This document shows, one piece after another, positions 10,718 through 13,681 of a stretch of DNA of 52,327 nt. The first letter of the stretch is position 1; every line of letters begins with the position of its first letter. Under the pieces are notes generated by a model. The model was not told the DNA's origin and searched no databases. It saw only the letters and a list, made by a program, of their open reading frames with translations. Both the position numbers and the translations under genes were made by a program. Origin of the DNA: Girardia tigrina (lineage: Eukaryota); the NCBI GenBank assembly GCA_001938485.1, contig MQRK01219748.1, forward strand, positions 1 to 52,327, read 5' to 3'.

Positions 10718-13681
10718 GGAAAGTTATAAGCCCTGAAAGATCAAACAATTAATTAAGAAAAATATAAAATTAATTAATCTTACCATGAGTCAACCCAGAA
10801 TCCGAGAATAATCGTCAGCTGACGAATCATCCATGAATCAGCAGCAGGCATGTTTCACAGATTTGAGAGTGTGTAAAGACACACGAGCTCCAGATACTAT
10901 AATAAAATAAAAAAAATTAGAGACACACCTACCAGCCCGACCAACCAATATCACAGAATTTTCAGACGATTGGTTGGCAGAACCTGGTTGGTCACTCGAA
11001 GACGACAGGACAACCTAGATAATCTATAAAAAAGAAATCATTTTTAACCAAGTCGCACAAAATTTTTTAAAGAGAACCCAACATACGTTTACACAAATAT
11101 TTTTTTAAAAAAAAAACCAAACTTACGTATTTCGCCAGTATATATACCAGAGGGACTTCGACGTTCAATCATCAAACCGACGAGGAGAACGCTAATTTAT
11201 CCGACGAAGAAGCCAGCGATATCGCAAGCAGCAAAAATTGTTTGACGACCGAGAAAGACACTTCACATATTCGAAGTGTCGACGAGTGAGGAAGACGAGC
11301 GATCAAACTGATACTGCCGATCGAGATACACTCCGGACCCCGTTGAAACTCTTTTACTGTAATTAATTTTTATAATTCCATTGATTTCGTTGTGATTATT
11401 AAATTTTTATTGATCAATGTATTACTTCGAATAAATGTATTTACTGACGATCCACTTACTTTTGAATATAATTGACTCGTACATTCGAGCCCCGGCCGTC
11501 TAGCGCTTCCGTCTAGGCGGGTTTCCTCACCGTCTTCGTCGCCGTCCCGATGAATCCTGCAAAAATACAGAAAAACTTCGACAATCCGCCGAAAGCGACC
11601 TTCGGTCCGAATCCGGGTGTCGCCTTGAGGATGAAATTTGACAATTTAAAACAAATTTTATTTGAAATACAATTTCATAGAATAGAGAATTTTACGATGA
11701 TTTTTTATTGTTTTAGAGTAAATCTTAAGATAAATAGTTTCTTTAAAAAGATTTTTCTTGTCCTAAAAATCCTAACTTTATAATTACATTAGCTGAACTT
11801 TGAGAGCTGGATTAATTATAATTTTCCTCTTATCAACAAAGAAAACAAATGTAAAGGGTTTATTATGGAATTCTATAAACAGTTCAATTTATGAGGTGAA
11901 TTTTATAAATAATCTAATGATTTTACATCAAATTAAGATTTGTAATAATTACTATTTGGGAATTATTGTTATTTCAAAAACTAAAATTATTGTTTAATTT
12001 ATCGAATTTTACTAATAATCTAGTTTATTAAATTGAATTGTACGAGTTTATTAATTGAGTTTCACAAAGGATTTAGATTGAATTTTACGAAATTATTAAT
12101 TTCAGGAATTGAATGGTTTAACTCATTGATTCTTAGGGATTAGGAAGTATGTCTGGGAAATAATGAAGTTTTATCTTTTAATAATTTCTATTGTGAATAC
12201 ATCTACGGTTTATTCATCCTAAGAAAAATCGAACTTTCAATAATTTTATTTAAATAAAATTTAAAAATAAGATTTCTATTATTGAGCAGCCTCTAATTCT
12301 ACACAAGGATAAGTATTTCGTAAGTGCGGGAGCCACCTTAGGAAACTGGAAAACGTTTAAAATCTTAAAACAAAAATTTAATCGTTGACGATGAATCTTG
12401 GGTTCGGACGATTATAATATACAATGTCGTTTAATTTAAGATTCGAGTAAATTTACTATGGTGATTCAATTGAGAGGTTAGCACCTGAAGGGATTCCCCT
12501 AATGACGGTAAATGCTACGACAACACTACACGATGAAGATACGAATACATAATGATACGATATTGCAATTCGATCGTTCGGATAGTTAGTAAGCTGCACC
12601 AGTTAGACAAGCATAAGTGACGCATTCATAGGAGGAACACAATTATGCAGAATAGAGACATACCCCTTTTTCAGTATGAAAAATATAAATATTTAAAATT
12701 AAAATTGTTTTAATTAAATAGGTATAATAAAAAATTATTTACCTTTTTATCATATTAAATATAAAATATATATAAATAAACGAATTAAAATAAGTAATAG
12801 AGTAAATAAATAAAATTAGTTTGAGGAATGTTTATATCGATAAAATAAGCAAATTATTTTAAAAGATAAATAAAAAAATAAATCTAAAAAGACAGTATAA
12901 AAAGAAGAAAGGTTTAAGAGAAGATCAGACAAAAGCTTGAGAAGAAAGTGTTATAATTTAGAAAGAAAGTTTAATTAAAAAGAACCTTAATTATATTTTA
13001 ATTAAGAGTTTTAAAGTTCAAATAATTAGATCATCGAAGGAATTTATCATTTTGTATTAATTATCTCACGCGGAGATAATTAGATTCATAAGAATTTATA
13101 TAAAAAGGCGACGTTTTAATTGTGACCTGATTATCGAATTTGAAATTGAATTGAACAGAAGAAGTCTTGTTGAATTAACTTAATTGAATAAAACGGATCG
13201 ATGATCATAAAAAGTACGGACTAAGTCCCAAATATAATTATATATTTTCGGTAATATATTTTTATATATTTAAAATAAAATGGGTAGAAGAAGTCTCTTC
13301 TCCCTTTCTATCTAAAATATTAAATCTCAATAGGCTAAGTCCTTAAATTCGCTTATAAATTTTGTTTATAATAAATAAATCTTATTGATAAAGATAATCT
13401 TTGTTTTATTTTCTCTTTTATATAAATTCACATAATATCCCAACACCCCTACAGACACTGACCCAGGTGGGGGCCCACAGCCTATCTTACCTTTAACTGA
13501 ACCCGAAGGCCCCTTGATCTTGGCACTGCTAGGCAGATGTCAAGCAAGATAGGAGGCGTCCGACCCTATATGTAATGACAGTAAAATCGAAATAAATTTA
13601 ACGTGGGTTGTGATTGACCCTCAACAATCACTGGGGGCTCGCGAGCTTTTAAAAATGTTTACACTCGAGAGGGTCGTGACA
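10718..13681. mobile_element. Partial giant LTR (sibling of 14136-17296) with a nested solo LTR
   Basis: 10718-11060 matches 14822-15190, and 13456-13681 matches 17072-17296. Ends GGGTCGTGACA. Confidence 0.7.
12667..13445. mobile_element. ~780-bp AT-rich solo LTR, 4-bp TSD CCCC
   Basis: Homologous to 24626-25429. Ends ATATCCCAACA; flanked by CCCC on both sides. Confidence 0.75.

Follow-up and report, generated by a model that had tools for sequence, protein, structure and literature searches.

Three copies of a conserved block of about 230 nt occur in the 52,327-nt stretch of Girardia tigrina DNA analysed in this study (the window; contig MQRK01219748.1). The locus raises the question of what kind of element the block belongs to, whether it is under selection as a folded RNA, and what such a fold would do. 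A preliminary description assigned the block to the terminus of giant LTRs, folded it on the minus strand and proposed a packaging or export element, a nuclease-resistant RNA or an unknown ribozyme.

Location of the block and its LTR context

All three copies previously described were recovered by blastn, in which positions 13447–13681 aligned with 17061–17296 at 88% identity and 13458–13681 with 28439–28664 at 71% identity. Copy 1 (13446–13681, plus strand), a structured LTR end on the U5 side with no primer binding site (PBS) 3′ of it in the window, terminates a 5′-truncated LTR remnant on the plus strand (10715–13681). Comparison of this remnant with the solo LTR L068 by blastn revealed an AT-rich insertion of approximately 780 bp (12666–13444) directly 5′ of the block. 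Copy 2 (approximately 17055–17296) ends a plus-strand LTR of 3.16 kb (14133–17296) that has the LTR start motif at 14133, and copy 3 (28425–28664, plus strand) belongs to a different subfamily and is about 70% identical.

Searching the 1.43-Gb AT-rich genome with the block yielded 2887 first-look candidates, 40 of which were scored; the LTR family has thousands of copies. The same TGACA-type end was observed in 30 of 30 fetched genomic matches, with downstream flanks that were unrelated, duplicate contigs excepted, and upstream flanks that were common, confirming that the block is an LTR terminus. A SINE or MITE reading was rejected, the upstream flanks being common over kilobases. Long loci measured 2.8–3.1 kb with TG...CA termini, so that the "giant LTRs" of the preliminary description are indeed LTRs and are of this size, and 4-bp target duplications flanked all seven solo LTRs with both ends visible. 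The structured block makes up the last 245 bases or so of the LTR and, as had been claimed, is its best-kept part: when the full solo LTR was divided into 100-nt bins, the last three were matched by 32–36 of 41 long loci and the remaining ones by just 5–19. Across subfamilies, common LTR sequence was limited to the last 250–300 nt. None of the seven early-ending matches, among 264, was a poly(A)-tailed truncated copy, and one narrow pattern for a polypurine tract before the 3′ LTR found none. Comparison of three small sequencing runs (type guessed) with locus L148 produced 10 partial records; two overlap the block, and none carries strand or end information.

Strand, PBS and downstream coding sequence

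Continuation into a PBS was observed in 3 of the first 70-odd loci. Exact junctions of LTR end and PBS numbered 96 and junctions with the full 18-nt PBS 144, versus 0 in both cases for the reversed control. In 5′ LTRs, the LTR terminus is followed by about four T residues and then by the 18-nt PBS, which was complementary to host tRNA-Pro genes over at least 17 nt in 30 of the 52 PBS-bearing copies and over at least 11 nt in 46 of them. At junction L205, a 37-nt copy of tRNA-Pro(AGG) including CCA was found, which is a direct trace of tRNA priming (read-through). Self-priming of the Tf1 type was rejected, since the PBS fits tRNA-Pro with CCA and L205 has tRNA read-through.

ORFs lying 3′ of the PBS, on the same strand as the PBS, were conserved. 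On one contig, a gag-like ORF was located about 8 kb downstream on the PBS strand, with a zf-CCHC match (E = 6e-4) and a Ty3 capsid match below the cut-off (E = 0.03). With the PBS, the downstream ORFs and gag all on the plus strand, the plus strand of the window corresponds to the RNA of the element, and the block to the 3′ (U5) end of the LTR. In the genomic RNA of the element, the block is predicted to lie directly upstream of the tRNA-Pro PBS; placement of the whole block in the 5′ leader is putative. The preliminary description, in which the PBS context and the tRNA-Pro complements were missing, had folded the antisense strand, and the PBS, ORFs, gag and the asymmetry between G-U and A-C pairs (see below) all favour the plus strand instead.

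Structure of the block

For comparative analysis, 212 LTR ends were reduced to 135 by dropping short, N-containing and duplicate ones; 10 badly aligning ends were removed and a 95% identity filter left 105, with 103 used in the counts. These 103 non-redundant copies, designated family A, have a mean identity of 71% and an effective number of approximately 33.

From its 5′ end, the predicted plus-strand fold begins at the edge of conservation (13446–13464), a patchy complement to tRNA-Pro nt 1–25 (D arm and acceptor 5′ strand). Helix X (13465–69/13487–92) encloses hairpin Y (13471–74/13480–83) and holds the top covarying pair 13467–13490, which is T-A in 43, G-U in 32 and G-C in 22 of 102 copies. 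A conserved TC bulge (13485–86) can pair with 13499–13500 in a 2-bp contact; these two bases lie in a conserved unpaired segment (13498–13508) that carries GAACCCG at 13499–13505, a PAS-like complement to the T arm (tRNA-Pro nt 50–56). The long arm (13509–13557) consists of helix Z with one bulge (13509–15/13549–57) and helix V with a bulged A at 13537 and a G-U pair at 13523/13540 (13519–28/13534–44), both having the same geometry in families B and C. The 5′ strand of helix T (13558–13566) pairs with the LTR end at 13671–13680 and is near-invariant in family A, while being wholly re-lettered in families B and C; its 3′ strand is the LTR terminus itself (13671–13681), the presumed integrase attachment end. 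Enclosed by helix T are a variable A-rich linker of 31–87 nt (13567–13604), in which AATAAA is often present (13591), and hairpin S1 (13610–15/13626–31, region 13605–13631), whose loop (13616–22) can pair locally with 13605–09 or with the terminus at 13669–75. S1 is followed by a candidate second PBS (13632–13642), in which 9–11 nt can pair with the 3′ end of tRNA-Pro, CCA included, and whose 3′ half folds into a short hairpin with 13644–47. An alternative helix, P0 (13443–49/13468–72), was not kept by the covariation analysis.

Alignment of the genomic copies, as suggested in the preliminary description, placed 10 of the 28 strongest covarying pairs (out of approximately 20,000 pairs) within one nested model comprising X, Z, V, S1 and the 2-bp contact, yet no pair reached E < 0.05 under a tree-based null (best 0.27; 103 copies). 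Compensating pairs were observed in helix Z (13510–13556, 13511–13555, 13513–13552, 13514–13551 and 13515–13549) and helix V (13520–13543 and 13521–13542). The earlier claim that compensatory changes imply selection on structure is supported, on the plus strand and with no single pair significant. Folding energy was unremarkable, with z of −1.0 on the plus and −0.4 on the minus strand for copy 1, and of +0.4 to −1.9 for 11 copies on the plus strand.

The stems proposed earlier fared differently. The hairpin GTGATTG/CAATCAC corresponds to S1 and was upheld, with 97% of cells paired and the pair 13614–13627 being T-A in 77 and C-G in 25 of 103 copies. The stem CTTGACA/TGCCAAG is helix V and is real, as its two compensating pairs indicate, but it had been read on the wrong strand; in 82 of 103 copies, the fifth pair of this stem reads as A-C on the minus strand and as G-U on the plus strand. 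The stem CCTATCTTGC/GTAAGATAGG was found to be particular to copy 1, several of its columns being less than 50% Watson-Crick. For the hairpin GGGCC-UUCG-GGUUC, covariation links positions 13510 and 13511 to 13556 and 13555, respectively, and not to 13501 and 13500, and inspection by eye showed just 2–3 of the 5 hairpin pairs intact in family B. The pseudoknot between loop and terminus can form, with 91% of 721 cells paired on the plus and 84% on the minus strand; it showed almost no two-sided change, and its terminal bases are also used by helix T.

This pseudoknot is one of two alternative pairings: in family A, a pair of GACCC strands and a pair of GGGTY strands are able to exchange partners. 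One state has helix T and the local pseudoknot (96% paired); the other has an alternative stem and the loop-to-terminus pseudoknot. Local pseudoknots were seen by eye at the same place in families B and C. The family-A exchange could possibly act as an on/off switch.

A functional fold on the minus strand, either in an antisense RNA or in strong-stop DNA, has a very small probability in our judgement. During replication the minus strand exists as single-stranded DNA, Watson-Crick pairs are identical on both strands, and a C(UNCG)G loop, of the kind noted in the preliminary description, was present in 69 of 103 copies. However, this loop is the reverse complement of the conserved unpaired plus-strand segment 13498–13508, and the UUCG hairpin carrying it is unsupported: its stem bases covary with helix Z instead, the hairpin is broken in family B and the loop is altered in family C. 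A Pol III B-box was not kept on the minus strand (5 of 134 copies). Across helices T, X, Y, Z, V and S1 in the 103 copies, 4360 cells read on the plus strand comprised 3704 Watson-Crick, 337 G-U and 110 A-C pairs, an asymmetry that is partly circular because the helices were derived from the plus-strand fold, and that helix T alone reverses (22 G-U, 51 A-C). The top covarying pair 13467–13490, which is free of this bias, has 34 G-U versus 1 A-C.

An undescribed plus-strand ribozyme, which would set an end of the element RNA by self-cleavage like the hammerheads in retrozyme LTRs, was also considered. LTR-borne ribozymes exist (PMC4918200), and the sharp 5′ edge of conservation, the bulged A, the invariant G-U, the 2-bp tertiary contact and the pseudoknot would all suit one. 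We nevertheless judge this improbable, as the tRNA complementarity described below accounts for the conserved unpaired bases, no HDV-type topology could be traced by eye, and hammerhead, twister and hairpin cores were found in 0 of 134 copies on the plus strand (the hammerhead pattern in 1 of 134 on the minus strand). A loose pistol pattern occurred in 10 of 134 copies on the plus strand and 20 on the minus strand and was uninformative. Rfam gave no match for the window at gathering thresholds, for 13400–13720 at E ≤ 10 or for eight loci at E ≤ 5, and the block lies outside all Rfam families (ribozymes, xrRNA, IRES, packaging signals). Neither the ribozyme nor the nuclease-resistant RNA of the preliminary description received support.

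Recurrence of the fold in distant LTR families

Further LTR families with the same PBS (B, B2, B3 and C) were obtained from the tRNA search. A 31-pair descriptor, composed of X, Z with one bulge, V with the bulged A and the terminal helix T, scored 26–30 in 20 family-A copies, 28–30 in 8 B copies, 28 in both B2 copies, 26 in the single B3 copy and 30 in the single C copy; shuffled controls had means of 23–24 and maxima of 25–27, the B3 copy did not exceed its shuffles, and the test was not fully blind because the register of T was set after family B had been seen. Strand preference was absent in B2 and B3, where the antisense descriptor scored equal or higher, a point for the minus-strand reading. 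A free search for the terminal helix was not discriminating (27 of 120 shuffles reached 9 of 9 pairs), and the case for helix T therefore rests on its fixed position and its re-lettering.

Stem letters differed wholesale between families while helix geometry persisted. The four-helix fold recurs, re-lettered, in two distant LTR families, with 28–30 of 31 pairs versus at most 27 in shuffles. These comparisons, which extend well beyond the three copies of the preliminary description, support selection on a folded RNA at the end of the LTR.

The same comparison bears on whether the pairing is incidental, the block being conserved as DNA (a promoter or integrase end) or being a relic of a captured antisense tRNA or of a duplicated LTR-PBS junction. 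Integrase does constrain the terminal bases of LTRs, to the eye, the tRNA-complementary patches follow one another much as in a permuted antisense tRNA-Pro, and L205 shows a route by which tRNA sequence may be copied in. However, helices whose geometry is retained in three families although their letters have changed are not accounted for in this way, and a relic should have decayed as the remainder of the LTR has; we consider incidental pairing very unlikely. An origin from tRNA and a present function of the block are compatible.

Complementarity to primer tRNA-Pro

Complements were scored as rank and z against a set of 15 host tRNA types. The second PBS lies about 50 nt before the LTR end (75 nt in family C), and tRNA-Pro ranked 1–3 of 15 for it in all three groups, with z from −2.5 to −6. 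A second PBS of at least 9 nt was present in 74 of 103 copies of family A, 25 of 27 of B, 1 of 2 of B2 and the single copies of B3 and C. These counts make a strong case for a predicted second PBS for tRNA-Pro within the LTR end.

The T-arm and D-arm complements are moderately supported candidates and are weak per copy. An exact T-arm 7-mer was found in 68 of 103 A copies, 3 of 27 B copies (25 with one G-U), 2 of 2 B2 copies and the B3 copy, and in the C copy with a G-U only (0 of 1 exact). Of 10 representative copies, 9 had the T-arm duplex at one and the same motif. For this complement Pro ranked 1–2 in the distant families and 4–5 of 15 in family A; the T-loop sequence is common to most tRNAs. 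The duplex with the tRNA 5′ end fell on the 5′ edge of the block in 8 of 10 representative copies, and there Pro was first in family A, third to fourth in B2, B3 and C, and 8th, 9th and 14th of 15 in B. No Pro enrichment was observed for an anticodon-arm complement against the same 15 types. The tRNA-complementary motifs persist in families with re-lettered stems. Exceptions were also seen: in one subfamily, base 13499 tracks its intramolecular partner 13486 and not the tRNA; the complement to the acceptor 5′ strand is lost in a numerous subfamily; and two PBS-bearing ends (L086 and L096) are without both the second PBS and the T-arm motif.

The same plus-strand fold might serve mainly in packaging, dimerisation, export or suppression of 5′ polyadenylation, with the tRNA matches secondary. 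The scaffold makes up most of the conserved mass, and AATAAA occurs more often than in shuffles within the loop that helix T closes (weighted 0.64 versus 0.19), resembling the poly(A) hairpin of HIV. Short palindromes, identified by eye, overlap the second PBS, and Ty3 is described as dimerising via a 5′ palindrome (PMC11381356). Yet AATAAA has no fixed position and is missing in 12 of 12 copies of one subfamily and in the family-B linker, and a second PBS that is Pro-specific and kept across families would be left unexplained. We regard such a main function as rather unlikely; the block may nevertheless have a packaging or export role, as proposed in the preliminary description.

A model for primer loading

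The position, strand, conserved fold and host tRNA-Pro complementarity of the block follow from the results above. From these we infer, with moderate confidence, that the block is probably a folded U5-side RNA end that loads and activates the primer tRNA. Helix T, by pairing the last bases of the LTR with a strand about 120 nt upstream, would draw the Z/V arm, together with the unpaired GAACCCG segment, close to the PBS. In the second PBS, the 5′ half is single-stranded and the 3′ half is masked by the hairpin; this site might catch tRNA-Pro by its CCA end and could be a first dock, a store or a place for a second tRNA. Since it pairs with the same bases of the tRNA as the true PBS does, a single tRNA cannot occupy the two sites together. 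In retroviruses, annealing to the PBS opens the acceptor and T stems of the primer tRNA, and the 18-nt annealing would do the same here. The freed 5′ strand of the T arm may then pair with GAACCCG, as the HIV-1 anti-PAS does with the PAS, and the freed tRNA 5′ strand and D arm with the 5′ edge of the block, after which reverse transcriptase would copy the block first, as strong-stop DNA. The block carries complements to exactly the tRNA strands that PBS annealing would free.

A bolder version is that the LTR end is a folded, T-box-like tRNA receptor, holding CCA at the second PBS and making T-arm, D-arm or anticodon contacts. It would take up two tRNAs per genome or hand one over to the PBS, and the strand-swapped pseudoknot flip of family A would link loading of the primer with packaging or polyadenylation. 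A Pro codon, CCG, is also present in the unpaired segment. This version seems quite unlikely to us; if true, it would be a retroelement-encoded primer-loading switch of a kind not found in the literature searched.

Comparison with known elements

To our knowledge, extended contacts between primer and template have been worked out for few elements (HIV-1, RSV, Ty1, Ty3 and gypsy), from biochemistry and with little comparative support. Variation over thousands of copies, together with three re-lettered families, may provide a covariation-backed fold of a whole U5-PBS domain. A further PBS that is directed at the same end of the tRNA and retained 50–75 nt inside the LTR is an apparently new feature: the literature searched, a scope that excluded the Burro genome paper and its supplements, yielded no description of the fold or of such a site in the parts available.

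The model of primer loading by the block resembles the HIV-1 U5-PBS/PAS region, in which likewise a structured leader adjoins the 18-nt PBS on its 5′ side, a motif further upstream is complementary to the T arm of the primer, and two-state folding is possible (PMC1865047, PMC13191261). It differs from HIV-1 in that the planarian T-arm complement is 7–8 nt long and about 185 nt upstream, the tRNA is a different one, and the LTR has a predicted second PBS and a candidate D-arm complement (PMC1865047). As in the bipartite or extended PBS of Ty1 and Ty3, several RNA segments would pair with the acceptor stem, T arm and D arm of the primer; unlike Ty3, whose 5′ PBS is just 8 nt and needs a 3′ part, the planarian element has a full 18-nt PBS with the extra sites inside the LTR (PMC5371799, PMC11381356). 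The env-bearing gypsy of Drosophila also has two tRNA sites, its own being 11 nt. The second gypsy site is near the 3′ end and binds the anticodon and T stems, so that one tRNA bridges both ends, whereas the planarian second site would bind the same tRNA 3′ end as the PBS, 50 nt away (PMC1635307).

Helenus TRIMs likewise have tRNA-related sequence inside the LTR, in their case a tRNA-like Pol III promoter reported to be non-complementary to their own PBS (PMC10886601). Unlike in Helenus, the planarian patches run antisense to the primer tRNA, a B-box is not conserved, and the element itself is long and encodes proteins (PMC10886601); the block is not a Pol III promoter of the Helenus type. Large LTRs, thousands of copies and accessory ORFs upstream of gag are shared with the giant gypsy-like Burro elements of planarians, and the available portion of the Burro description mentions no LTR RNA structure and no second PBS (PMC6431247). 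Nothing on LTR structure was present in the accessible parts of two other reports (PMC13238120, PMC8532177).

Between gag-like and protease-like ORFs, the window contains fragments of a mononegavirus-like fusion glycoprotein. This arrangement recalls Burro elements; the env, gag and protease pieces of the window gave no match to 50 stretches downstream of the PBS (sense strand; the stretches end before pol) or to locus L288. An array of short ORFs was observed between the PBS and gag. Nine proteins from the array had no Pfam family above the cut-off and the protein of the first ORF had no match in the Atlas, and the array may merit attention equal to that given to the LTR end.

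Short-ORF array between the primer-binding site and gag

The interval between gag and the tRNA-Pro primer-binding site (PBS) that follows the 5′ LTR was found to hold an ordered, conserved array. It comprises at least 8 short ORFs, each separate from the next and approximately 110–160 aa long. It occupies the first ~4.2 kb past the PBS in genomic loci L146, L152, L154, L156, L157, L158, L145, L141, and L142, and was also observed at L288:4490–5622. The spacers are AT-rich, and the ORF products are coiled-coil-like, with no Pfam family over the cut-off. An AG lay no more than 6 nt upstream of 40 of 43 start codons, compared with 124 of 547 in the background. 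Judging from sequence, each ORF looks as if it were a unit with its own splice acceptor, and the array as if it were operon-like, to be resolved via alternative splicing from one leader or spliced-leader trans-splicing. No such array appeared among the entries listed by a literature search.

LTR ends and tRNA-Pro

At L205:589–625, the PBS is lengthened into a 37-nt copy of tRNA-Pro(AGG), CCA included; we infer that plus-strand synthesis overran its usual stop at methylated A58. A conserved GCGAG...CTCGC hairpin and a CCCCT run stand immediately 3′ of the PBS at 5′ LTR junctions (e.g., L157:4945–4972) and look, by eye, like the anticodon stem and the D-arm complement of tRNA-Pro.

Locus L096 represents an additional LTR family primed by tRNA-Pro. 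In the 300 nt preceding its PBS, a D-arm complement and a terminal helix were present by eye, and the second PBS and T-arm motif were absent. Subfamilies (L141, L142, L143, L146, and L153) also share a second conserved GC-rich block ~2.2–2.5 kb before the LTR end, close to the far LTR terminus; it is possibly another structured or promoter element.

Other features of the window

Decayed gypsy-type coding remnants, interrupted by stops, frameshifts, and gaps, were located at 19835–24456 (minus strand) and 6977–10068 (plus strand). Within them, a mononegavirus-like fusion glycoprotein (PF24664) is flanked by gag-like and protease-like frames, an order like that of Burro, the giant gypsy-like elements of planarians.

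The AT-rich insertions at 12666–13444 and 24638–25430 are related to each other (blocks of 89% and 69%), and a further match, inverted, lies at 52034–52208. They are probably a non-autonomous DNA element; one of the two insertions sits inside LTR copy 1. A MULE-like transposase remnant (50143–51849; PF10551, under cut-off) is bracketed by 311-bp inverted repeats (93%). Minus-strand protein-kinase exons, MAP2K-like by eye, at 29818–30279 and 49050–49463 suggest that a large part of the window is intron. A 315-bp palindromic element (2301–2615) and an intronless Brix-domain frame (2719–3396) were also observed.
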